A DNA stretch of 64,000 bases from Pseudomonadota bacterium (GCA_043820105.1 JBDREC010000030.1:2888-66887), one strand, 5' to 3'. Positions 36,052 to 64,000 are shown, counted from the stretch's first letter. The notes: generated from the letters alone by a model not told the origin. Numbers and translations are program-made.

Positions 36052-36420
36052 TTATATGGAAATCAGCCTTTTGAAGCTCTTAAGATACAAAGGAAGTTTA
36101 TCATATAATTCATTTGCAAGTTTTTCTTTATACATATGTGCAATCTGATTTCTAGCATCTGTTATTTCCAGCCAAATTTCATCATATTCAAGTAATTCTT
36201 GTTTATATGCTTCTCTAAAAGTTGCTTTAGGAGAATTGGATATTATTCCATGAATATCTTCAAGATATGTTTTTAGCATTTTCCATGAAAGATCAAAGGT
36301 GAATTCAAAACGTTGAATAGCTGAATCTCGCATATATTCAGTTTTATCCTGTTTTAAAACATCATCCAGTCTATTAACAGCTTTGTTTAGCTGTTGTTTA
36401 ATTGCTTCAAGTTTAGTCAT
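36052..36420 (-). CDS. hepT: HepT-like toxin (nucleotidyltransferase substrate-binding protein, HI0074 family / DUF86)
   Basis: 122 aa with the family pattern ...RDSAIQRFEFTFDLSWKMLK...; paired with the upstream MNT gene by an 8-nt overlap. Confidence 0.7.
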   Translation of the reverse strand: MTKLEAIKQQLNKAVNRLDDVLKQDKTEYMRDSAIQRFEFTFDLSWKMLKTYLEDIHGIISNSPKATFREAYKQELLEYDEIWLEITDARNQIAHMYKEKLANELYDKLPLYLKSFKRLISI

Positions 36421-36730
36421 TTATTTTTATTTCCTCTATATTTTGCATTGCTACTTTTTTAAACTCTTCTGAAACTTGTGTAAAATCAACAAGCTCTATT
36501 TTATATAAATAGGGAAGGTTTTCAATATCTTCTTTTATTTTTTCCATTTTTTCTATTGGAATTTGTAAAGTGCCTAAAAGTCCAACATCAATATCTGACC
36601 TTTCTGAACCTTTGCCAGAAACCCTTGAACCAAAGTAAAAGACTCTAAATTCTTCTAAATTTAAGTGCTTTCCTAGAATTTGAATAATATTTGATGTCAA
36701 TTTATTTTTATTACAATTTTTAAAATTCAT
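36413..36730 (-). CDS. mntA: MNT-type nucleotidyltransferase antitoxin (HI0073 family)
   Basis: GSRVSGKGSERSDIDVGLL, the minimal nucleotidyltransferase motif. Confidence 0.7.
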   Translation of the reverse strand: MNFKNCNKNKLTSNIIQILGKHLNLEEFRVFYFGSRVSGKGSERSDIDVGLLGTLQIPIEKMEKIKEDIENLPYLYKIELVDFTQVSEEFKKVAMQNIEEIKIND

Positions 36731-51257: not shown

Positions 51258-52700
51258 TCAAAGAATATATCTACTCAAATCTTCATCCTTCGCCAAATCA
51301 TCAAGTCTTTCTTTAACATAACCCTTAGTGATCTCTATGGTCTGCGCCGGCAAATCCGGGGCCTCAAATGAAATCTCATCAAAGATTTTTTCCATGACAG
51401 TATGCAGTCTTCTTGCTCCAATGTTTTCAGTTTTTTCATTAACATATTCAGCTATTTCTGAAATTTCTGCAACTGCTTCATCTGTAAATTGAATATCAAT
51501 GTCTTCAGTTTTCATCATCTCCACATACTGTTTTGTTAAAGAATTTTCAGGCTCAGTTAGAATTCTTTGAAAATCATTTTTAGTAAGCCTATTGAGCTCA
51601 ACTCTTATTGGAAATCTTCCTTGAAGTTCTGGAATAAGATCTGATGGTTTTGATATATGAAAAGCACCAGAGGCTACAAAAAGGATATGGTCTGTTTTAA
51701 TCATGCCATATTTAGTCATTACATTGGAACCCTCGACTATTGGCAGAATATCTCTTTGTACACCCTGTCTGGAAACATCAGGCCCTTGTTTAGAGCCTTG
51801 GCTTGCAATTTTGTCAATCTCATCTAAAAAGATAATACCAGAATTCTCAGCTCTTTTTACAGCTTCCTTGGAAACCTTATCCATATCCATTAAACGATTG
51901 ATTTCATCATTAATGATTATTTCACGAGCCTCTTTGATTTTCATCTTCCGTCTTTTGCTTTTTTTAGGAAACATATTTCCTAAAGCTTCTTGCATATTCA
52001 TTTGCATATCATCTGGAATCTGACCAGAAAAAATTTCAATTGAAGGAATTGATTTTGATTTAGTCTCAATTTCAATTTCTTTTTCTTCAAGCTTTTCTTC
52101 ATCAAGCAGTAGTTTTAATTTTTCACGGCTTTCTGATTTTTTTTCTTCCTCTTCTTGAAGTCTTTGCTCTTTTAATACATCACCTAGATCAGGTTGACTA
52201 TCCTGATTCATTCGATCAAAGTGTGTATTTCTTGAAAAAGGAGGTTTCATGCGAGGTTTAGCAGGAGTGGGTAGTAATAAATCAAGCAGCTTTTCTTGCG
52301 CATTTATTTTAGCTTTTTCATAAAGCCTTTCTCTTTCTTCTGCTTTAACCATATTAACACTTATTTGGACAAGGTCTCTGACCATTGATTCAACATCTTT
52401 GCCCACATATCCAATTTCAGTAAACTTTGAAGCCTCTACTTTAATAAATGGCGCTTGGGCGAGCTTAGCTAGCCTTCGTGCTATTTCAGTTTTTCCAACA
52501 CCTGTTGGTCCAATCATGATGATGTTCTTTGGTGTAATTTCATCACGCATATCTTCAGAAACGTTTTGTCTTCTCCATCTATTTCTAAGAGCAATGGCTA
52601 CTGCACGTTTTGCTTTATCCTGTCCAATAATATATCGATCAAGCTGAGCTACGACTTCTTTTGGAGTTAAAGTTAGTTTATTTTCCATTAAATTCTCCAT
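51258..52700 (-). CDS. hslU: ATP-dependent protease ATPase subunit HslU (CodX-like)
   Basis: [34 protein letters not shown] plus Walker [16 protein letters not shown]. Confidence 0.9.
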
Positions 52701-52776
52701 ATTTTTTATTAAGTGATTAAAAGCAAATAAAATGTAAATTGTAAAAACTACTTACCACTTACCACTTACCACTTAT

Positions 52777-53316
52777 TTATAATTCTTCTACTACAATATT
52801 ATAATTTGTAAAAACACAAATATCTGCAGCGACTTTTAAAGACTTTTCAGCTATTTCTTTAGCTGATAAATCAGTATTTTCTTTTAAAGCTCTGGCAGCA
52901 GCCAGTGCAAAGGATCCGCCTGATCCTATTGCAGCGATTCCATCATCAGGTTCAATGACATCGCCTCTACCTGATAAGGTTAATATTGTTTCATCATTTG
53001 CAACAATCATTAAAGCTTCTAATTGCCTTAAGAATTTATCTGATCTCCATTCTTTAGCTAGCTCAACAGAAGCTCTTGTAATATTACCGTTGTATTCTTC
53101 GAGCTTTGCTGAAAACTTATCAAATAAAGTAAAGGCATCAGCTGTTGCTCCAGCAAAACCTGCAATCACTTTATCATTAAAAAGTCTTCTAACTTTCCTG
53201 GCAGTAGCTTTCATTATTGTATTTTGCAAACTTACTTGCCCATCACCTGCCAAAGCAACTTTTCCATCTTTTTGCACAGCTAAAATGGTTGTTGCGTGAA
53301 ATGTTATTTCTGACAT
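52777..53316 (-). CDS. hslV: ATP-dependent protease subunit HslV, CodW-type (N-terminal Ser plus 5-residue extension)
   Basis: [14 protein letters not shown] closely parallels Bacillus CodW (MSSFHATTIFAV). Strong similarity continues through [26 protein letters not shown]. Confidence 0.9.
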
Positions 53317-53331
53317 GTTCTCTCCATTTTT

Positions 53332-53361
53332 GTTGCTGGTTGCTGGTTGCTAGTTGCTGGT
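53332..53361. repeat. Heptamer array (GTTGCTG)x4
   Basis: Read directly in the hslV upstream spacer. Confidence 0.85.
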
Positions 53362-53432
53362 GAAAAAACCTATCACATAATAACAAACAAGCAGCAATCC
53401 AAATTTATCTAAGTGTTTGAATTTGGTTTTCT

Positions 53433-53468
53433 ACCACTTACCACTTACCACTTACCACTTACCACTTA
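53433..53468. repeat. Heptamer array (CTTACCA)x5
   Basis: Read directly. The same unit recurs at 52749-52776, 40096-40126 and, as its complement, at 29693-29731. Confidence 0.85.
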
Positions 53469-53469
53469 A

Positions 53470-54378
53470 TTACGCTTTTGGGTGTGTCCTATCATATTCT
53501 TCAATCAACTTATTAACACTTACTTTAGTATAACGTTGAGTTGTGGATAACATTGAATGTCCCAAAAGCTCTTGAATACTTCTTAAGTCAACCCCTGAAT
53601 CTAAAAGATGAGTTGCAAAGGTGTGTCTAAAAACGTGAGGTGTAACTTTTTTTTGGATTCCATTTCTTTTTAAATACTTATCAATTATTCTTGAAATTCC
53701 TTTTTGAGAAATTCTATTTTTACTTTTATTCAAAAATAAAGGTTTAGAATCATTGGAAACAGAATTATAATCAATACCTACAATATCAAGATATCTTGTC
53801 ATTGCAAACTTTGCTTTATTTCCAAATAAGACGATTCTTTCTTTGTTACCTTTACCAATTAATCGAATACATTTATCATTAAAATCTACATTACTTGTAT
53901 TTAACGAAACAAGCTCACTTACTCTCACACCAGATGCGTATAAAAGTTCAAGTATAGCTCGATCTCTTAATTCTTGCCATGAATCACCATTTGCTGATTC
54001 GATTAAAGTGAATACCTCATCAACTGACATAGTTAATGGTAGATATTTTTTTCTTTTAGGTGTAGCAACATTTTTTGCAATATTTTCTTTTACCTTACCT
54101 TCCGTTTTCATGTAAGTCATAAAGCTTCTTAAGCTTGCTATTTTCCTTGCTAAAGTTGTGCTTGAATTTTTGTTATATAAATAAGCTAAAAAAGCTCTGA
54201 TATGTTGAACTGAAATTATATTTAAATCAAAGGGATCATTAAATGATTTAAGAATTTTTTGCTCAAGTAAGAATCTTGAAAAATCTTCTAAGTCATTTGA
54301 ATAGTTCCTTAGTGTATGACTTGAATAGTGTTTAACATTTTTTAAATATTCAATGAAATCTTTGATATGCTTTTTCAT
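53470..54378 (-). CDS. xerC: Tyrosine recombinase XerC/CodV
   Basis: C-terminal catalytic box HVFRHTFATHLLDSGVDLRSIQELLGHSMLSTTQRYTKV. Sits upstream of hslVU as in the Bacillus codVWX arrangement. Confidence 0.85.
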   Translation of the reverse strand: MKKHIKDFIEYLKNVKHYSSHTLRNYSNDLEDFSRFLLEQKILKSFNDPFDLNIISVQHIRAFLAYLYNKNSSTTLARKIASLRSFMTYMKTEGKVKENIAKNVATPKRKKYLPLTMSVDEVFTLIESANGDSWQELRDRAILELLYASGVRVSELVSLNTSNVDFNDKCIRLIGKGNKERIVLFGNKAKFAMTRYLDIVGIDYNSVSNDSKPLFLNKSKNRISQKGISRIIDKYLKRNGIQKKVTPHVFRHTFATHLLDSGVDLRSIQELLGHSMLSTTQRYTKVSVNKLIEEYDRTHPKA

Positions 54379-56003: not shown

Positions 56004-57689
56004 ATGAAACTATTTAAACTAACAAATCTGTTAATTTATCCACTTACCATCTTAATCCTAATCTTAAGTCTTAATCCTGATCTCAATGCACTTACTGAAT
56101 CAGAATTTCTTAATGAGTATAATAATGCCTATACAAGCTTATCAGAATCTCAAAGACAATCATGGATAGAAAGAATCTCAAATAATCACCATGAACTAGA
56201 ACCTGCTCATATTAAAGAAATAATAAAAAGTGATTTTATTGAGGCTGGTAAAAAGCGCAATGACGCAATAGATCTGGATAAGCTACATTTTTTTTATAGC
56301 TTTATAAAAAGCCTGGTTCAAAAGCCACTTGATGATGAACTTCTTGAGGTAATTCTAGGTAAAATAGAATTTGATAATACAAAAATTCAAAGAATAATTG
56401 AAAGCTATTTAAGTGATCTAGATACTTTGAAAAGAAAACCTAAATTAGATGACACTGCCACCAAATTTGTGCCCAAACTTGCTGTTTTATGGTCTGAAGT
56501 ATTATGCATAATATCTTTAAACTCTTATTCAAATTTTAAAGGTAGCTATTATTTTTATTGGATACATAAAATTTATAAAGGTCTAAGCAATACTAAAAAG
56601 GCAATCCCAGCTGAAATAATCACAAAAGTTCATGGATATGCTTTAAGAGCTGCAGTTCAACACATGATTATAAAATCTAGAGATGATTTTCTTAGACCTG
56701 AATATGATAATAAAAGTCCTGAAGCTTTATTTTCTTTATTAAAGGAACTTCTTAATCATCCTAAATATGAACCCTTTAAGCTCGCTGGTACAGCAACATA
56801 TTACTTAAAATTATTAAGTTTTAAAGAATTATTTTATGACCTTGCAAAGCCTAAAAAGACAATTCTTTGTGATTATTTCCTTTTAGAAGTGCTTGAGTAT
56901 AATATTTTTTCAACAGCAATATCTATTATTTACACAAGACATAATGTAAGACCATCACTTGAGCTATCATTACTCATTGCTGAATTGCATTACTTGGATA
57001 TTTTATTAAAGGAATTTGCTATCGAGGTATTAAGTCATGAAAGCTATCAGGATATTCAATATCAAAAAGATAAGCATGCAATAATGGCGGAATATATTAG
57101 AGATAGAGATAAGGCCTTTGGAAGCTATATGACTTTTGATGATAGTGAAAAAGACGCAATAGCATCAAAAAAGACTTTTGATACTGAAGAATATGAAGAT
57201 TTATTAAAAGGACTAAGCTCTTCAATTTCTTTTGAAAAAATGCTAGCAGCTCAAGAACTTTATTTTGCTAAAGATAAATTAAAATCATTAGATATAAATC
57301 AAATAATAAAACTTCATCAAGCACTAGTTGATATTTTAATTGAAGATATTCCTAAAAAAATTGCAGCTCCTGGTTTCATTAATGAAGTAGCAGCCAAAGA
57401 ATATGCAGCCAAAGCTCTTGGTTTAGATGTTTTCACGTCATTGGATGAATCTGGACTTGGAAATATAAGAAAAACAAATTTTTTAAGCTCTGGGGATGCT
57501 TTATTAATAGCGCTTAAGAAATTTTACGGGAAACCTTCTTTCTATGATTTGGGAGATTATATTTTAGAATCCTTAAAACATGATGAGCACAGTTATCAAC
57601 TTAAAATCGCTAAGAGCTTCATTAATAAAGCCAATGGAATTATAGAAGATTCAATCAATCCACGAATATCTTGCATGGCTTTATTTTAA
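56004..57689 (+). CDS. Secreted all-alpha hypothetical protein
   Basis: Signal peptide LLIYPLTILILILSLNPDLNA. 561 aa, no recognised domain. Confidence 0.5.
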   Translation: MKLFKLTNLLIYPLTILILILSLNPDLNALTESEFLNEYNNAYTSLSESQRQSWIERISNNHHELEPAHIKEIIKSDFIEAGKKRNDAIDLDKLHFFYSFIKSLVQKPLDDELLEVILGKIEFDNTKIQRIIESYLSDLDTLKRKPKLDDTATKFVPKLAVLWSEVLCIISLNSYSNFKGSYYFYWIHKIYKGLSNTKKAIPAEIITKVHGYALRAAVQHMIIKSRDDFLRPEYDNKSPEALFSLLKELLNHPKYEPFKLAGTATYYLKLLSFKELFYDLAKPKKTILCDYFLLEVLEYNIFSTAISIIYTRHNVRPSLELSLLIAELHYLDILLKEFAIEVLSHESYQDIQYQKDKHAIMAEYIRDRDKAFGSYMTFDDSEKDAIASKKTFDTEEYEDLLKGLSSSISFEKMLAAQELYFAKDKLKSLDINQIIKLHQALVDILIEDIPKKIAAPGFINEVAAKEYAAKALGLDVFTSLDESGLGNIRKTNFLSSGDALLIALKKFYGKPSFYDLGDYILESLKHDEHSYQLKIAKSFINKANGIIEDSINPRISCMALF

Positions 57690-57829
57690 TTAAAATATAT
57701 TTATGGGGAAAAAGTTTTTTTTCCTGGCACCATGTATGGAATTGTTTTAAAAAGACATTATTATATAAAGAAATATTGAATTCAAATAAATATAGCTTTT
57801 TCAATTATATAATTATAATAAAACAAACC

Positions 57830-58153
57830 ATGGATAGCTTAAAATTAAAATATAAAACGCCACATCTTTTTGAGTTTAATAAAAATAGAAACTCTAAAAC
57901 AGCCTGCTTTAGTGGTTCAGGCGCAAAATATACTTCAGCACTTGATGCGTTTGTATGTAATACTGGAAGCGATAAAGGTGGAAATCCAGATCCAGGATGC
58001 ATGCATGGAGACGGAAACACTAATAATCAAAAATTCATCCTTGTTTGTGGCTTAGGTTCGGCTGTTGTTGCTGCAAGAGAGTGCTCAGGCGGAAGCGGGT
58101 TTAGCTTAAGAGATGATGCCTGTTATATAGGTAATGGTGCAGGTCCACATTAA
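57830..58153 (+). CDS. Small Cys/Gly-rich protein (8 Cys in 84 aa after a 24-aa polar leader), hypothetical
   Basis: The ORF-track frame starts at 57671. The start is set at the Met at 57830 because the upstream part looks like non-coding AT-rich text. Local GC is visibly higher than the flanks. Confidence 0.4.
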   Translation: MDSLKLKYKTPHLFEFNKNRNSKTACFSGSGAKYTSALDAFVCNTGSDKGGNPDPGCMHGDGNTNNQKFILVCGLGSAVVAARECSGGSGFSLRDDACYIGNGAGPH

Positions 58154-58367
58154 TATATATATTGATAAATTTTAAGCGTATTTCTAAGTAAGCAGCATAA
58201 TCCTGGACATTAATACCCCATCCTATTAAGCTATCATAATGTAACCCATTGTAATAATTGTAATACAAAAACTATCTCTGTGGCGTAAAACTTGCAAAGA
58301 TTTCTTTTGATTTTAATTTATTTTAGTACTATGAAAATTAAGTATTTAATATTTTGGGAGTTTATTT

Positions 58368-59057
58368 GTGAAACAACACATTCTTAGATTAATTTCGGCT
58401 CTGATCATTATCTCAATAATTCCCATATTTCTTAATGCCATAAACCTTGAAAATTCTGAAGATGAAGAAAAGATCATTTGTTTAATTGATGAAGCCTTAC
58501 TTCCCCTTTATAATAATGAAGATAGTGAAGAAAGATTGCTGTCAATAATAGATGAAATGATATTAATTTTCACCAAATATTATAACCAAAAAAAAGGCAA
58601 AGGTCTTTTTGCAAGACAGGAAGCCTTTGATAAAAGGATTATTTTTCAAAGGGTTGTTAACGGGTTTCTAATTATTTCAGATATTCAAACTAGTGAAAGG
58701 GCAGATTTAAAAATCTTAAAATTCCTAATTTCAATAAATGGATGCACAATGGACATATCAGTTATCACAATAAAAAAGCTTTTGCTGAATAAAGTTGAAA
58801 CTGTAGTTGAAAACTTTGAGCTTGGCGATTTTGTTTATAAGAAAATAACATTATCAAGAAAATATTTATTGTATTTTGTAAATGATATCAGGCAATACTA
58901 TAGTCGCAGAGTAAGTAAACTTGACTTCAATGTAGAAAGTTTTAGAGACAAATTGAGCAGGGTATATGTTCAAGTAAATTACTATAAGTTAAGAGATGAT
59001 CTAGCAGCCACATTTGATGAACTAGATGAAATCATTCCAAAACCCACCAAGAAATAA
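58368..59057 (+). CDS. Hypothetical protein with N-terminal signal/anchor
   Basis: GTG start 8 nt after GGGAG. 229 aa. Confidence 0.5.
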   Translation: MKQHILRLISALIIISIIPIFLNAINLENSEDEEKIICLIDEALLPLYNNEDSEERLLSIIDEMILIFTKYYNQKKGKGLFARQEAFDKRIIFQRVVNGFLIISDIQTSERADLKILKFLISINGCTMDISVITIKKLLLNKVETVVENFELGDFVYKKITLSRKYLLYFVNDIRQYYSRRVSKLDFNVESFRDKLSRVYVQVNYYKLRDDLAATFDELDEIIPKPTKK

Positions 59058-59820
59058 ACGTAACGTCTGATAACAGATATTATGTCAAATTTAAATCTTT
59101 TTCCGGACTTTAATGAACTTGCCTATAGCTTATCGTCCTTTGGATATTTTTGCTTCAATACCTTTATAAACTTAGGTAAATCCCAAAGACCCCTTTTTGC
59201 TTATTTGGATTTCTAATTTCCTTAGCATTTTAAATTTTATTGACCAGAACTAGCACTTTTTTTGTTTATTTTATTAACATCTTATGTCTTTGATCTTTAT
59301 ATCTAAATTCCCCATCCTAATACCAAAAACCAAATATTAACTCCATGCCTAGACCTTCCTTTAATTGAAAAGTCTTCTCAGAGGCTAAATATGAAAGCCG
59401 TTTTTTTACATAAAAACGAATAAAACTGAATTTGCAGACCCTGGTTCAAAATAAGACTCTTAGGGCATAATTTGCAATTTTTCACTCAAAACAAAGTGAA
59501 GTAGCAAGCAAAAAAAAGATTAAACATTTCGTCCTCTACATTGATTACACCTCTATAATGCCGAATTCATTGCACATTTCAAACCACGCAGTTTTCTTGC
59601 CCTTATTATCTGTCTATCTCCAGGATGCCTCATAAAAAACGCATCGCGCAATTAGGCTTGGCGCGTTATTTTTAATTTGCATCTACATTTTGAAATTGAA
59701 ATTGCAAATTTTAAATATTGAAAATGGATATATTCGTGGAATTTAATAAAAGGACCCTCTTTTCAATCTTAATTTTCCTTTTAATCTTGAGTAAATTTTA
59801 CTTGATATGATATTTTAATT

Positions 59821-59847
59821 TTGTTAGCTAGAACTCGCTTTTAAAAT
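59821..59847 (+). promoter_or_regulatory. Putative sigma70-type promoter of tRNA-Gln (TTGTTA-15-TAAAAT)
   Basis: Hexamers read directly. The -10 ends ~11 nt before the tRNA 5' end. Confidence 0.3.
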
Positions 59848-59858
59848 AAAAGCTTTTT

Positions 59859-59929
59859 TCTGGGCTCGTTCAATGGTAGGACAACAGACTCTGACTCTGT
59901 TTATCGGGGTTCGAATCCTCGGCCCAGAG
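59859..59929 (+). tRNA. tRNA-Gln (anticodon CUG)
   Basis: Manual fold. Acceptor TCTGGGC/GCCCAGA with a U1-A72 pair typical of bacterial tRNA-Gln. D-stem GTTC/GGAC. Anticodon stem ACAGA/TCTGT with loop CTCTGAC. T-arm CGGGG-TTCGAAT-CCTCG. No encoded CCA. T-run follows. Confidence 0.75.
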
Positions 59930-59951
59930 TTTTTTCTATTGGATACATAAG

Positions 59952-60473
59952 ATGACCAAAATCGACTTAATCAAATCTGATATCACAAAACTCAAAATTG
60001 ATGCTATAGTTAATGCAGCCAACAATTCTTTACTTGGCGGTGGTGGTGTTGATGGAGCTATTCATAGAACAGCTGGTCCAGAATTGCTGGAGGAATGCAA
60101 AACTCTTGGAGGTTGTAATACAGGCGATGCCAAAATCACTAAGGCCTATAATCTTCCCTGTAAATATGTTATCCATACCGTAGGGCCTGTATGGAAAGCT
60201 GGAAAAAATAATGAAGAAAAACTCCTGGCTTCTTGTTATAAAAACTGTCTGGATCTTGCCAATCAATATAAAATTAAAACAATAGCTTTCCCATGCATAA
60301 GTACTGGAGTTTATCTGTTTCCTAAAGAAAAGGCTTGCAAAATTGCTATATTCCAAACTTTAGATTTCATAAAAAACAAACCCCTTATTGAGAAAATTAT
60401 TTTTTGTTGTTTTTCTGATAAAGATTATAATATCTATAAAACATTAGCATTTTTTAATATTGACGGAAATTAA
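59952..60473 (+). CDS. Macro-domain protein (O-acetyl-ADP-ribose deacetylase, YmdB-like)
   Basis: [25 protein letters not shown] and the Gly-rich loops of the macro fold. 173 aa. Confidence 0.85.
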
Positions 60474-60495
60474 TTTTTATAACAGATTTTTTACA

Positions 60496-60540
60496 GGAGA
60501 GATGGCTGAGCTGGCCGAAAGCGTCCGACTCGAAATCGGA
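60496..60540 (+). pseudogene. 5' fragment of a tRNA-Ser (anticodon CGA): acceptor 5' strand, class-II D-arm and complete anticodon arm only
   Basis: GGAGAGA-TG-GCTGAGCTGGCCGAAAGC-G-TCCGA-CTCGAAA-TCGGA. No variable-arm stem, T-arm (GGTTCGAATCC-like) or acceptor 3' strand in the next 150 nt. Confidence 0.5.
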
Positions 60541-60631
60541 TAGGTGGTATTTCATGCGAATAAATTGACATGAATTTGCCAATATAATAGATTACTGTTC
60601 TCTTTATAAATTCTACAAGTAAGGGTTAATT

Positions 60632-61951
60632 ATGAAAATTAAAAAACTGATTTCAATTTTAGCTGCGTCTTTCTTTTTTCTTTCACTATCTATCATAGTT
60701 TCAGCAAAAGATTTTACTTATTTAGTAGGAGCAGGAAGTGATGCTGGAAAACAGGCTGCCACAGCACAATCGGCCACTTGGGTAAAAAACCTTACAAAAG
60801 CTATAAATAAGGCTGCAAATGATATAAACGCTGGGGGCGATGTCAGTGTGCTTATAAAAGTAGCAGCTGGCGATTACAATGGAGATATGGGCTCCGGAGC
60901 ATATGCTATACCTTTATTAAATAACTTGAATGGAACTTTGAAAATTGAAGGTGGTTATGATTCAAGCTTTGCTAGCAGAAATCCCTTTGCTACACCATCC
61001 AAAATAGTTACAGTTAAAGACAGATCAGCTCCAATTATAACTTTTACAACTAAATCAAAGCTTAAAGCATTGATTGTTGATGGCCTTATTTTTGATTCTG
61101 AGGCTTCCAATGCTTATGATAAAAAATCCAATACTTTACTATATGGCAAATCCTGCTCTCATGTATTTGTAAAATACAATTATCTGGAACTTAATTTACT
61201 GGAATATAAGAATGTTGTTTTCATGAACGCAGCCAACAGAGTTATGGAAACTCTTGTAAGAGCTGCTACTCCTGAGGCAGAGGTTCATTTTTACAACACA
61301 GTTTTTTTAAATAACAGGATTCCCTTAAAACTTGATGGTCCAGGCTATAAAAACAAGATAAATAAAATAATTGTTGATCATTGCAGTTTTATCCTTAACT
61401 GGGCCTACAATCCTGATCCTAACACAGGTCTACCAGCTGCCTTGGAAATTGGCACAAATAACGCTCTTAATGAAATAGTATTAACAAATAATTTGTTTTA
61501 CAGTAATTTTGGAGGTGCTATTATTGCACTTAATGCAAAATCCCCTGGCATGACTATTAATAAAAACAATTTTATTGGAAACGGCCTACTACATGGGGAA
61601 TCTGAACCTTCTGCAGTAGCTATGATAATTTCCGCTGGTGGGAAAAAACAGCCAATTAATGTTGCAACAATAGAAGATGTCAACTTTGTAAATGAAGCAG
61701 AAGGCAATGTTTCTATTTCACCAGGAATTTCATATTCTCTTGGAAATGTAAAAACAGTTGACGCAAATAAAATAAAAGCAAATGAAAACTGGCAAAATGT
61801 AATAAAATCAATACTAGGACTTAATTTAGATGGTGGCAAGGTTTCAGTCAAAGACTATGCGCCTAAACAAAACTATGATCCCAAGTATCCTCCTTTTGCA
61901 ACAGTAACCCCTGCTTTAGCTTATGGTGCTTCGGAAAAACTTGCCAAATAA
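60632..61951 (+). CDS. Secreted hypothetical protein, possibly right-handed beta-helix fold
   Basis: Signal peptide. N/G/T-rich repetitive short strands. 439 aa. Confidence 0.5.
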   Translation: MKIKKLISILAASFFFLSLSIIVSAKDFTYLVGAGSDAGKQAATAQSATWVKNLTKAINKAANDINAGGDVSVLIKVAAGDYNGDMGSGAYAIPLLNNLNGTLKIEGGYDSSFASRNPFATPSKIVTVKDRSAPIITFTTKSKLKALIVDGLIFDSEASNAYDKKSNTLLYGKSCSHVFVKYNYLELNLLEYKNVVFMNAANRVMETLVRAATPEAEVHFYNTVFLNNRIPLKLDGPGYKNKINKIIVDHCSFILNWAYNPDPNTGLPAALEIGTNNALNEIVLTNNLFYSNFGGAIIALNAKSPGMTINKNNFIGNGLLHGESEPSAVAMIISAGGKKQPINVATIEDVNFVNEAEGNVSISPGISYSLGNVKTVDANKIKANENWQNVIKSILGLNLDGGKVSVKDYAPKQNYDPKYPPFATVTPALAYGASEKLAK

Positions 61952-61981
61952 TTTATTGGTTTTCACTGAAAAGGTATTCTA

Positions 61982-62179
61982 ATGAAAAAGATTTTTTGTT
62001 ATTTAATTTGTCTAGCTTTTTTAGCCTCAATCCTTTCCTGTGCCCCACGATTTCGTCCCAAACCAAGAGCTTGTGGTCCAGACCACACGTGGAATGGAAA
62101 AAAATGTGTTAAACTCTTAAATGCAAAAAAGTGTCCGATAGCTTATCATTGGAATGGTTTTAAATGTGTGAAAAATTAG
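61982..62179 (+). CDS. Small Cys-rich lipoprotein with internal duplication (H-x-WNG-x-KCVK twice)
   Basis: Lipobox ILSC. 65 aa. The two halves read GPDHTWNGKKCVK and IAYHWNGFKCVK. Confidence 0.45.
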   Translation: MKKIFCYLICLAFLASILSCAPRFRPKPRACGPDHTWNGKKCVKLLNAKKCPIAYHWNGFKCVKN

Positions 62180-62198
62180 TTAATTTAAGCTAAATAGA

Positions 62199-62576
62199 TT
62201 ACAGAGACCTAACTTCACGATGTACTAGATATTTATCTATTTCAACGAGGGTTACTTTGCTAACGTCAATAAATTCAATGCCCAACATTGGATAGGAATA
62301 TTGATCATCTTTCTTTTTTTCGTCGATTCGAATAACTTTTCCCTTAACAGTATTAACATGGTTCCCTGTTGGTAATTTGAATTTAAGAGTCAGAATCATT
62401 CCTTTTTCAATATGAAAGCTTTCTTCTAATAATATTCTTGTTTCCAGACCAATTCCTCCTTTGCTAATATTTTTAGCATAGGAAAAGCCAAAGTGCATTT
62501 CACCTTCATCATTTAGTATTTTCATGTATACGGGTATTCTAGGGTATTTTCTTTTATCTGACTCTCCATTAGTCAT
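62199..62576 (-). CDS. PilZ-domain c-di-GMP-binding protein
   Basis: RKYPRIP (RxxxR) ... NISKGGIGLET (D/NxSxxG). Confidence 0.7.
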   Translation of the reverse strand: MTNGESDKRKYPRIPVYMKILNDEGEMHFGFSYAKNISKGGIGLETRILLEESFHIEKGMILTLKFKLPTGNHVNTVKGKVIRIDEKKKDDQYSYPMLGIEFIDVSKVTLVEIDKYLVHREVRSL

Positions 62577-62590
62577 GTCATTTCTCCTTA

Positions 62591-62959
62591 TTAACTTTCT
62601 ATTACATCTGCAAAGGGCATAAAAATATTTGATCTTTTTAAGTTTTCCATTGTGTAAACCTGTTTCAAACCATGCCTTGCTTTGGTTTTAATATCTTCAT
62701 AAATATTTTCAGAAACATCAATTATTTCTTTATATTTATCAATAGCCTTTCTTCTTTTTCCTGCTAGATCTAAGCTTCTGGCCATCCATAATGAAGAAAT
62801 ATTTTTTCTGTATTCTAAAGTTTCTATCTCTTGAGAAATAATAAACTGAGTATAGGCCTTATCAAATTTTCGAAACCTTAGCAAAAATAATCCATAGATG
62901 AAATAGTACATTGCTTCTTCAGGGTCAAGCTCAATCGCTTCTTCTAATTTTTCTAGCAA
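62591..62959 (-). CDS. TPR-like helical protein; possibly the C-terminal part of a gene split by a frameshift
   Basis: TTG start overlapping the stop of 62953..63345. The two frames are joined by a T6 run (GGTTTGGTTTTTTGCTAG). Confidence 0.45.
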   Translation of the reverse strand: MLEKLEEAIELDPEEAMYYFIYGLFLLRFRKFDKAYTQFIISQEIETLEYRKNISSLWMARSLDLAGKRRKAIDKYKEIIDVSENIYEDIKTKARHGLKQVYTMENLKRSNIFMPFADVIES

Positions 62960-63345
62960 AAAACCAAACCTGGTTTAAATATCACAGAACTTATATTATG
63001 AACTTGGCCAATTGTATTTGGAAATGCACGGATTTCCTTGCAAATCGGATCATATCTGTCACATATTAGAGATACAGCGTGATTCTCGTCAAAATTTGCG
63101 CCCTGCTCCTTTATATAAGAGTTCATTCTTTCATATCTTGACATATTATGATCATAAATTATTTGGCTTGGATAATATTCATTTTTTTTCATACTTTCAG
63201 TGAGCTTTAAAAAGTATGCAAGTCCACCTTCTTTCATGTCATCTCTTAAAAGCAGAGAGTGATGAAAAGCTCTGTCATAGGCATCACCAGATACTTTAAT
63301 AACATTGAGCCTGCCTACTTTTCCAAGCAAAGAATTTCTATTCAT
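62953..63345 (-). CDS. Hypothetical protein; possibly the N-terminal part of the same split gene
   Basis: 130-aa ORF ending at the T6 run. No domain recognised. Confidence 0.45.
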   Translation of the reverse strand: MNRNSLLGKVGRLNVIKVSGDAYDRAFHHSLLLRDDMKEGGLAYFLKLTESMKKNEYYPSQIIYDHNMSRYERMNSYIKEQGANFDENHAVSLICDRYDPICKEIRAFPNTIGQVHNISSVIFKPGLVFC

Positions 63346-64000
63346 TCAGATTTACCTTTTTATTAAGCTCTGCTAATATATTTAATGCTTCCATTGGAGT
63401 AATATTATTAATATCAATTTCTTTAATTAATTTCAATAAATTATAATTATCATCCTGAACTGGATTAAAAAGACTTAATTGTTTTTTTTCTTTTGCATAT
63501 CTTTTAGAAATATTGGACAAAGACGCAGGAGATATTTTTATTTTATGCTCATCCCCAGATTCTAAACCAGCTAATATTTCCTTTGCCTTAAAAATAACTT
63601 CATCAGGAATTCCAGCAAGCCTTGCAACTTGAATTCCATAGCTCATGCTGGCTGGTCCTGAAAACAATTTTCTTATGAAAATTATTTCGTCATTAAACTC
63701 TTTAACTCCAATATTAAAGTTAGCAATTTTGTCTTTTTCTTTATCTATCTGTGTTAGTTCATGGTAATGAGTGGCAAATAAGGTTCTGGCTTTTATCTTA
63801 TCATGAATATATTCAGCACAAGCCCAGGCTATGCTAATACCATCAAAGGTACTTGTGCCTCGACCTATTTCATCCATGATAATTAAGCTTTCAGAAGTGG
63901 CACTTGATAAAATCGTTGCTGTTTCTCGCATTTCCACCATAAAAGTTGATTCACCGCCAGCTAAATTGTCACTTGCTCCAATTCTGGTGAAAATTCTATC
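63338..64000 (-). CDS. mutS: DNA mismatch repair protein MutS, C-terminal part (N-terminus beyond window)
   Basis: DEIGRGTSTFDGISIAWACAEYI...FATHYHELT, then the C-terminal GPASMSYGIQVARLAGIP helix-turn-helix region. Confidence 0.85.
   Translation of the reverse strand, partial: DRIFTRIGASDNLAGGESTFMVEMRETATILSSATSESLIIMDEIGRGTSTFDGISIAWACAEYIHDKIKARTLFATHYHELTQIDKEKDKIANFNIGVKEFNDEIIFIRKLFSGPASMSYGIQVARLAGIPDEVIFKAKEILAGLESGDEHKIKISPASLSNISKRYAKEKKQLSLFNPVQDDNYNLLKLIKEIDINNITPMEALNILAELNKKVNLNE

Follow-up and report, generated by a model that had tools for sequence, protein, structure and literature searches.

The split tRNAs of Nanoarchaeum equitans and Caldivirga are archaeal and are divided after position 37/38; their leaders are rich in GC and complementary, and they depend on the archaeal splicing endonuclease. 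Truncated tRNA genes of a different kind result from site-specific integration: when an integrase inserts an element into a tRNA gene, the element restores the gene and an end fragment of the original is displaced. Of the 3919 islands in the Islander survey, 3760 had displaced a 3′ piece and only 159 a 5′ piece. A fragment of the latter kind has to be followed downstream by an intact cognate tRNA, in the same orientation and with an integrase between the two, and the crossovers occur in the anticodon loop, in the T loop or at the T/acceptor junction (Hudson, Lau and Williams, 2015, PMC4383910). Partial tRNA copies originating from such integration are common (van der Gulik et al, 2023, RNA Biol, PMC9897764). 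As for the tRNA concerned here, serCGA, encoding tRNA-Ser(CGA), is kept in only about 70% of 319 bacterial genera, and its retention correlates with the use of UCG; in Pseudomonas fluorescens SBW25, where UCG makes up 22.5% of the serine codons and 1.31% of all codons, deletion of the only serCGA gene is viable because tRNA-Ser(UGA) reads UCG (Ayan, Park and Gallie, 2020, eLife, PMC7661048). The present analysis concerns a 64,000-nucleotide stretch of DNA (hereafter, the window) from an organism deposited as Pseudomonadota bacterium (GCA_043820105.1 JBDREC010000030.1:2888-66887), which contains a 52-nucleotide 5′ stub of a class-II tRNA-Ser(CGA) gene on the plus strand (60496-60547). This stub is probably a dead relic left behind by a deletion, that is, an ordinary tRNA pseudogene.

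The sequence of the stub is GGAGAGATGGCTGAGCTGGCCGAAAGCGTCCGACTCGAAATCGGATAGGTGG, which by segment reads GGAGAGA-TG-GCTGAGCTGGCCGAAAGC-G-TCCGA-CTCGAAA-TCGGA-TAGGTGG. Retained are the acceptor 5′ strand, the D arm, the whole anticodon arm and the 5′ strand of the variable stem (the first 7 nucleotides of the variable arm); nothing is left of the T arm, the acceptor 3′ strand or the discriminator, nor of the variable arm past this point. From reading the sequence, the D arm carries G18 and G19, and the CGA anticodon is flanked by U33 and by a purine at position 37. All eight pairs of the D stem and the anticodon stem are unbroken, as are the conserved bases U8, A14, G18, G19, and U33. Homologues were sought in GTDB, each species being represented by one genome, by means of a pattern in which nothing but the acceptor strand, the D-stem and the CTCGAAA loop was fixed. 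The scan yielded 52 tRNA-Ser(CGA) loci, belonging to Bacillota, Actinomycetota, Riflebacteria/Ozemobacteraceae, Muiribacteriota and others. ARAGORN recognized an intact tRNA-Ser(CGA) gene of 90-98 nucleotides in 49 of these; two were cut by the end of the locus, and the remaining one (L027; see below) is itself a stub. Over its first 45 bases, the window stub is identical at 36-42 positions to the tRNA-Ser(CGA) genes of the 52 loci, followed by TAGG(T/C)GG, with which the variable stem begins.

A covariance model constructed from 30 of the intact tRNA-Ser(CGA) relatives (R1) scored 41.9 bits on 60496-60604, with an E value of 1.2e-8. Aligned were model positions 1-46 and a few terminal bases, whereas positions 47-83, representing the variable and T arms, found no counterpart at the stub, where 55 unaligned bases took their place. 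Rfam, in truncated mode, gave 24.6 bits for the stub over model positions 1-51. Gene positions 29 and 45 had been left free in the search pattern; the stub carries T:A there, the aligned relatives C:G (30 of 30), which is a compensatory change preserving the top pair of the anticodon stem. Because of this compensatory T29:A45 pair, the stub is taken to descend from a working tRNA and not to be a chance look-alike. The stub is thus genuine tRNA-Ser(CGA) sequence, and the elements ascribed to it in an original prediction made without database searches (a perfect acceptor 5′ strand, a class-II D-arm and an anticodon arm) were confirmed by R1 (positions 1-46) and by Rfam (1-51).

Homology to the relatives continues 7 nucleotides into the variable arm, and the break lies inside the arm at about 60547/60548. 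There, the GC content falls from 59.6% in the stub to 25% over the next 84 nucleotides. The original prediction had placed the break at the variable-arm boundary, which was right as to the loss of everything beyond, but not as to the exact site, which is 7 nucleotides inside the arm. No gene was called by ARAGORN in 60301-60900, neither in default mode, nor with introns allowed, nor with thresholds at 80%. The T-loop motif GGTTCRAATCC (at most one mismatch) was encountered in the window only in a tRNA-Gln gene (see below) and at two distant chance sites, and R1, run over the whole window with filters off, returned nothing better than an E value of 0.45 besides the stub. Neither a tRNA-Ser 3′ half nor an intact tRNA-Ser was therefore detected anywhere in the 64-kb window by ARAGORN, the T-loop motif, or R1. 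This agrees with the T-arm and acceptor 3′ strand having been reported as absent, and the missing 3′ half, suspected to reside elsewhere, did not turn up across the window.

The long stem-loop of the variable arm is the main identity element for seryl-tRNA synthetase. Of this stem-loop, only the 5′ strand, GGTGG, is present; the sole possible partner, UUGCC, lies ∼25 nucleotides off, in an insignificant fold. The fold z-scores were +0.21 for the spacer that follows the stub and −1.2 for stub and spacer together, neither of which is significant. A complete tRNA with an intron or an oversized variable arm was rejected on the grounds that the intron and low-threshold modes of ARAGORN were negative and the folds insignificant; likewise, a complete tRNA-Ser mis-folded because of an unusual variable arm, the case that the original prediction had named against itself, was not recovered by ARAGORN in any mode.

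The Rfam family RF00005, in contrast to ARAGORN, reports a full-length match at 60496-60606 with 29.0 bits, which is exactly the gathering score, a concrete case of a tRNA fragment passing a curated threshold. In this alignment, 17 model positions are skipped, the T arm is deleted, and a 53-nucleotide insert is accommodated. The acceptor stem is closed with TCTCTTT (60599-60605), at the price of two G-U pairs and of an A as discriminator instead of the expected G73. Heptamers able to pair with GGAGAGA occupy 0.55% of the positions of the window, and at least one per 100 nucleotides is expected 42% of the time; TCTCTTT as the true acceptor 3′ strand was accordingly rejected as chance (P about 0.42 per 100 nucleotides). 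The deposited annotation (tags ABIA04_053xx) evidently contains no tRNA at the stub, judging from the tag numbering: between 05315, a 561-amino acid protein, and 05340, the protein encoded downstream of the stub, four slots are free, which corresponds to two open reading frames (ORFs), the tRNA-Gln gene and a macro-domain gene.

How the stub may have arisen is suggested by its surroundings. A once-working tRNA-Ser(CGA) gene would have been located downstream of the tRNA-Gln and macro-domain genes. A spontaneous deletion, or another illegitimate recombination event, with one end inside the variable arm would then have taken away everything from there through the T arm to the acceptor 3′ strand, together with some amount of downstream DNA, and the stub would thereby have become fused to the AT-rich upstream region of a gene for a β-helix protein. 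Such a loss would have been tolerated, as a genome of 32% GC scarcely uses TCG, and as tRNA-Ser(UGA), the presence of which is assumed and not observed, would read UCG by wobble. In the long ORFs of the window (17,044 codons), the 1176 serine codons include 31 TCG (2.6%), which amounts to 1.8 TCG per 1000 codons.

Evidence for deletions at this locus is provided by a collapsed pseudogene of a ∼560-amino acid C45-like and TPR protein on the minus strand (62591-63345). The 130-amino acid ORF it contains (62953-63345, minus strand) has 39 homologues, which are 547-748 amino acids long except for one of 272 and one of 2276. Residues 8-53 of the best homologue (P0170; 562 amino acids) match residues 3-48 of the ORF, and residues 297-371 match residues 49-123. 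The two blocks abut in the ORF, which indicates a clean in-frame loss of about 243 residues. Residues 444-562 of P0170 match the adjacent 122-amino acid ORF; as this is in a different frame, a second loss, of about 72 residues and accompanied by a frameshift, is indicated. The two ORFs overlap, and they are listed in GenBank as separate hypothetical proteins (ABIA04_05355 and ABIA04_05350). Given two such deletion scars at a distance of only 2.4 kb, the stub is most economically explained by one more deletion, with an end in the variable arm of the tRNA. The stub also has the hallmarks of a pseudogene created by deletion: a gene with intact homologues is partly missing, the boundary is sharp, and a mobile-element signature is absent. 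A deletion, rather than an insertion replacing the sequence, therefore appears to have taken place, the stub is presumably without function, and the event is taken as recent because the stub is undecayed.

Several points weigh against this reconstruction. No sister or ancestral sequence was found, so that the end-points of the deletion cannot be reconstructed. The undecayed stems and the GC content of 60% in a 32%-GC genome speak for a very recent event or, equally, for selection on the stub. The evidence stems from a window of 64 kb, and an intact tRNA-Ser(CGA), the tRNA-Ser(UGA), or the 3′ half may sit elsewhere in the genome. Finally, the source is a metagenome-assembled genome (MAG), and the junction is known from the assembly alone.

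The β-helix protein and its neighbors are identical to MAG proteins tagged ABIA04_053xx (“Pseudomonadota bacterium”). No close relatives were found among 5.8e9 proteins, the GTDB representative genomes or the Joint Genome Institute (JGI) metagenomes. The best identities were 62% for the β-helix protein, 71% for the macro-domain protein and about 60% for MutS (C-terminus), and the 561-amino acid neighbor is an ORFan that hit only itself among 5.8 billion proteins. In 80 metagenome loci with macro-domain homologues (71% identity or less), no adjoining tRNA-Gln or tRNA-Ser was present, and none of the proteins of the window was found near the 52 tRNA-Ser(CGA) loci. Synteny with the window was not seen at any locus of the β-helix, macro-domain and MutS relatives, nor did a tRNA gene adjoin the homologue there. 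The source lineage is essentially unsampled and deep-branching. MAGs of the Ozemobacteraceae/Riflebacteria type have in common a tight tRNA cluster of the order Ser(tga)-Ser(gct)-Arg(gcg)-Ser(cga)-Ser(gga). It is conserved in the loci L006, L013, L029, L030, L032, L040, L042, L043, L045, L047, L048, L050, L054, and L055 and is cut or partial in L010, L015, and L044; elsewhere, tRNA-Ser(cga) is in many loci succeeded by tRNA-Ser(gga) within about 100-170 nucleotides.

It is unlikely, albeit conceivable, that the stub is an extra partial copy, generated by partial duplication or imported together with neighboring DNA, while a working tRNA-Ser(CGA) gene is located elsewhere and no function was lost. 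Such copies are common beside intact tRNAs (PMC9897764), the stub is undecayed, and L027, from Thermincola, has a 42-nucleotide 5′ stub 150 nucleotides upstream of a different intact tRNA-Ser(CGA). However, no second copy of any part of the stub exists in the 64 kb, and the low use of TCG renders outright loss of the gene unproblematic. This explanation shares with the deletion the view of the stub as dead DNA and differs from it only in whether the genome lost a function.

Likewise improbable is that the stub represents a displaced 5′ fragment and, thus, the left edge of an island of the rare reversed type, the intact tRNA-Ser(CGA) being located beyond the window or the junction having eroded later. 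Elements commonly integrate into tRNA genes, partial copies of which mark the ends of islands (PMC9897764; PMC4383910), 5′ fragments do occur (the 159 of 3919 Islander islands; PMC4383910), and the stub is an end fragment, for which the island would have to extend on its 3′ side, toward the end of the window. Moreover, homologues of the β-helix protein are encoded in unrelated contexts in other phyla, a hint of mobility. On the other hand, the last 3.45 kb of the window, beyond the stub, lack any integrase, repeat, compositional or phage signal. The genes there are those for the β-helix protein, a lipoprotein, a PilZ protein, the C45-TPR remnant, and mutS, none of them a phage or island integrase; mutS would have to be considered island cargo. 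An att-like repeat was not found, nor was a second copy of the stub or of the junction sequence in the 64-kb window. The GC content at third codon positions (GC3) of the β-helix gene is 0.227, compared with a window mean of 0.220 ± 0.030, and the tetranucleotide correlation with the rest of the window is 0.978 for 60548-64000 (mean, 0.967) and 0.939, equal to the mean, for 60548-62190. Screens for phage content with PHROGs, with a pattern scan of viral contigs (IMG/VR), and with the β-helix protein as query in a viral search were all negative. The break in the variable arm coincides with none of the three known crossover sites, and at most about 5 kb of the contig (69,171 nucleotides) lie outside the window.

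A simple insertion of only the β-helix/lipoprotein pair was rejected because the stop codons of the lipoprotein and PilZ genes are only 19 nucleotides apart, with no tRNA remnant between them. An integrase-family gene 6 kb to the left of the stub (53470-54378) was dismissed as an island integrase because it is xerC in a xerC-hslVU arrangement. The classic order xerC-hslV-hslU extends over 51258-54378 on the minus strand, and this housekeeping recombinase is the only gene of the Phage_integrase family near the stub. Where the original prediction had left the choice between an old integration and a deletion junction, the deletion fits, given the scars nearby and the rarity of TCG, whereas integration is unsupported, with no integrase, repeat, or compositional shift; its notion that the 3′ half lies at the other end of an island received no positive support, the window containing no such half.

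Very unlikely is a third explanation, according to which the truncation is an artifact of MAG assembly, that is, a mis-join or collapse at 60547/60548 of a tRNA-Ser(CGA) gene that is intact in reality. The contig is from a MAG, tRNA sequences shared among members of a community may confuse assembly graphs, and a second odd structure, the collapsed C45-TPR gene, is close by. However, joining via a shared tRNA k-mer would produce a full-length hybrid tRNA and not a stub. GC3 and tetranucleotide signature are also alike on both sides of the junction, the spacer equips the gene behind it with a normal ribosome-binding site and start, and an in-frame deletion of 243 amino acids, as in the neighboring gene, is untypical of assemblers.

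That the stub is kept because it is functional, be it as a small RNA resembling a tRNA half, as a structured leader or processing signal for the β-helix mRNA, or as the 5′ gene of a split tRNA whose other half is supplied in trans, can hardly be maintained: its pairs and conserved bases are intact and its GC content is 60% despite strong AT pressure, and, located 22 nucleotides past the macro-domain stop codon and 84 nucleotides before the next gene, it is predicted to be probably transcribed, but without a T arm it is no substrate for RNase P or the CCA-adding enzyme, neither stub plus spacer (z = −1.2) nor the spacer (+0.21) folds significantly, the break lies elsewhere than in known split tRNAs (position 37/38), the sequence that follows is AT-rich and not a GC-rich pairing leader, and neither a complementary segment nor a 3′ half is present in the window. 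The only hints at selection are the perfect stems and the 60% GC within a 32%-GC genome, and it is most doubtful that selection maintains the stub as an RNA element, whether a small RNA equivalent to a tRNA 5′ half, a β-helix leader, or a bacterial split tRNA-Ser.

To the left of the stub, an intact tRNA-Gln(CTG) gene occupies 59859-59929 on the plus strand (Rfam tRNA, 55.6 bits over the full model, 1-71); ARAGORN sets its bounds at 59858-59930 (plus strand) and calls no other tRNA gene in the 64-kb window. CCA is not encoded, and a T-run is situated 3′ of the gene. After 22 bases follows an intact gene for a macro-domain protein of 173 amino acids (59952-60473, plus strand), a YmdB-like O-acetyl-ADP-ribose deacetylase (Pfam PF01661, 1.1e-50), which scores 229 bits against NCBIfam NF001664 (O-acetyl-ADP-ribose deacetylase; cut-off, 200) and is MFH1727824.1 in GenBank. 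Again 22 bases separate its stop codon from the tRNA-Ser stub. An intact tRNA-Gln and a macro-domain gene between the two tRNAs had both been anticipated in the original prediction, and both were corroborated, the former by ARAGORN and Rfam (55.6 bits), the latter by the Pfam Macro (1.1e-50) and NF001664 (229 bits) matches. The 800 nucleotides 5′ of tRNA-Gln (59058-59857) contain no ORF of at least 50 amino acids and no Rfam match; near 59635-59675, a GC-rich hairpin between A- and T-runs resembles a bidirectional terminator. Further upstream lies a lineage-specific block of genes without Pfam families (56004-59057, plus strand), which includes the ORFan; the C-terminal region encoded by one of its ORFs (57671-58153) is rich in Cys and Gly.

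To the right of the break, an AT-rich spacer (60548-60631, plus strand; 25% GC), marked by the drop in GC content and the lack of a fold signal, takes the place of the 3′ part of the tRNA. It contains a promoter-like TTGACA-17-TAGATT at 60565-60593, although such sites are no more frequent than in shuffled sequence, and AAGGG as the ribosome-binding site of the β-helix gene. The latter (60632-61951, plus strand) encodes a secreted right-handed β-helix-like protein of 439 amino acids with a signal peptide; a few of its homologues have PF13229 (Beta_helix). Besides the self-hit, 46 homologues were found, the closest being 62% identical; they are encoded in unrelated chromosomal contexts in other phyla, with no tRNAs nearby. 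Next is a gene recognized by its sequence as encoding a Cys-rich protein of 65 amino acids with a lipobox (ILSC; 61982-62179, plus strand), which features a duplicated H/Y-x-WNG-x-KCVK motif and five further Cys residues. This lipoprotein gene is probably unannotated in GenBank, because tags and accessions leave only one gene slot between the β-helix and TPR ORFs. Convergent with it is the PilZ gene (domain match, 4.3e-12), followed by the collapsed C45-TPR gene and by mutS, a core gene that starts 2.8 kb downstream of the stub and runs intact off the end of the window. The downstream set that had been described, consisting of a secreted β-helix protein, a Cys-rich lipoprotein, a PilZ protein and a frameshifted gene, was found as such.

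The idea that the window is rich in pseudogenes in general was discarded: the other overlapping ORF pairs inspected were either a normal MNT/HEPN pair or uninformative, and decay is claimed only for 62591-63345. The MNT/HEPN pair consists of overlapping genes on the minus strand (36052-36730) for a Pol-beta-type nucleotidyltransferase and an NTase substrate-binding (HEPN-like) protein and resembles an MNT/HEPN pair of the toxin-antitoxin type.

Beyond annotation, the significance of the stub is slight, as it is one more instance of a known phenomenon, the tRNA pseudogene. For annotation, it illustrates a pitfall, since RF00005 calls the stub complete at its gathering score while a dedicated tRNA finder rejects it. 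It also adds a small data point on the loss of a dispensable tRNA-Ser(CGA) in AT-rich genomes with very low use of UCG, and, taken with the collapsed neighboring gene, it suggests that deletional decay is under way in a lineage that branches deeply and has been poorly sampled. Should the stub be conserved and expressed, it would constitute an unusual bacterial tRNA-half gene.

Compared with the split tRNAs of Nanoarchaeum equitans and Caldivirga, the stub has in common that a 5′ half is encoded without an adjacent 3′ half, but it breaks in the variable arm, the next 84 nucleotides have a GC content of only 25%, and there is no complementary segment in the window. With the tDNA islands of the Islander survey (PMC4383910), it shares a tRNA end fragment beside patchily distributed genes; however, the window contains no intact cognate tDNA, the candidate interval has no integrase, the break is off the crossover sites, and the composition, a supportive rather than strictly defining trait, is not anomalous. 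The tRNA fragments and pseudo-tRNAs compiled by van der Gulik et al (2023; PMC9897764) are similar in that a partial tRNA is perfect over part of the cloverleaf and can be misreported as complete. Most of those cases, however, are due to integration of an element, with an intact cognate at its other end, or are CRISPR spacers, whereas the 64 kb around the window stub contain neither a partner copy nor an integrase or a repeat, and what was kept is the 5′ part instead of the usual 3′ part.

The stub of Thermincola sp. L027 (JAVSMW010000002.1; 4674-4956 with the gene that follows) is alike in being a 5′ fragment, of 42 nucleotides, of a GGAGAGATGG-type tRNA-Ser(CGA) that is missed by ARAGORN. 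It differs in that it ends in the anticodon stem and is followed, about 150 nucleotides on, by a different, intact tRNA-Ser(CGA) gene. The 3′ flank of this intact gene matches that of the native gene in L012, so that one tRNA gene seems to have been replaced by another, with the 5′ stub as a remnant; in the window, no replacement tRNA is located downstream of the stub. The loss of serCGA studied by Ayan, Park and Gallie (2020; PMC7661048) was a clean engineered deletion in Pseudomonas, while the event considered here was natural, left a stub of 52 nucleotides, and has no compensating tRNA-Ser(UGA) within the window; nevertheless, the tRNA species concerned is the same, and UCG is very rare in the window.

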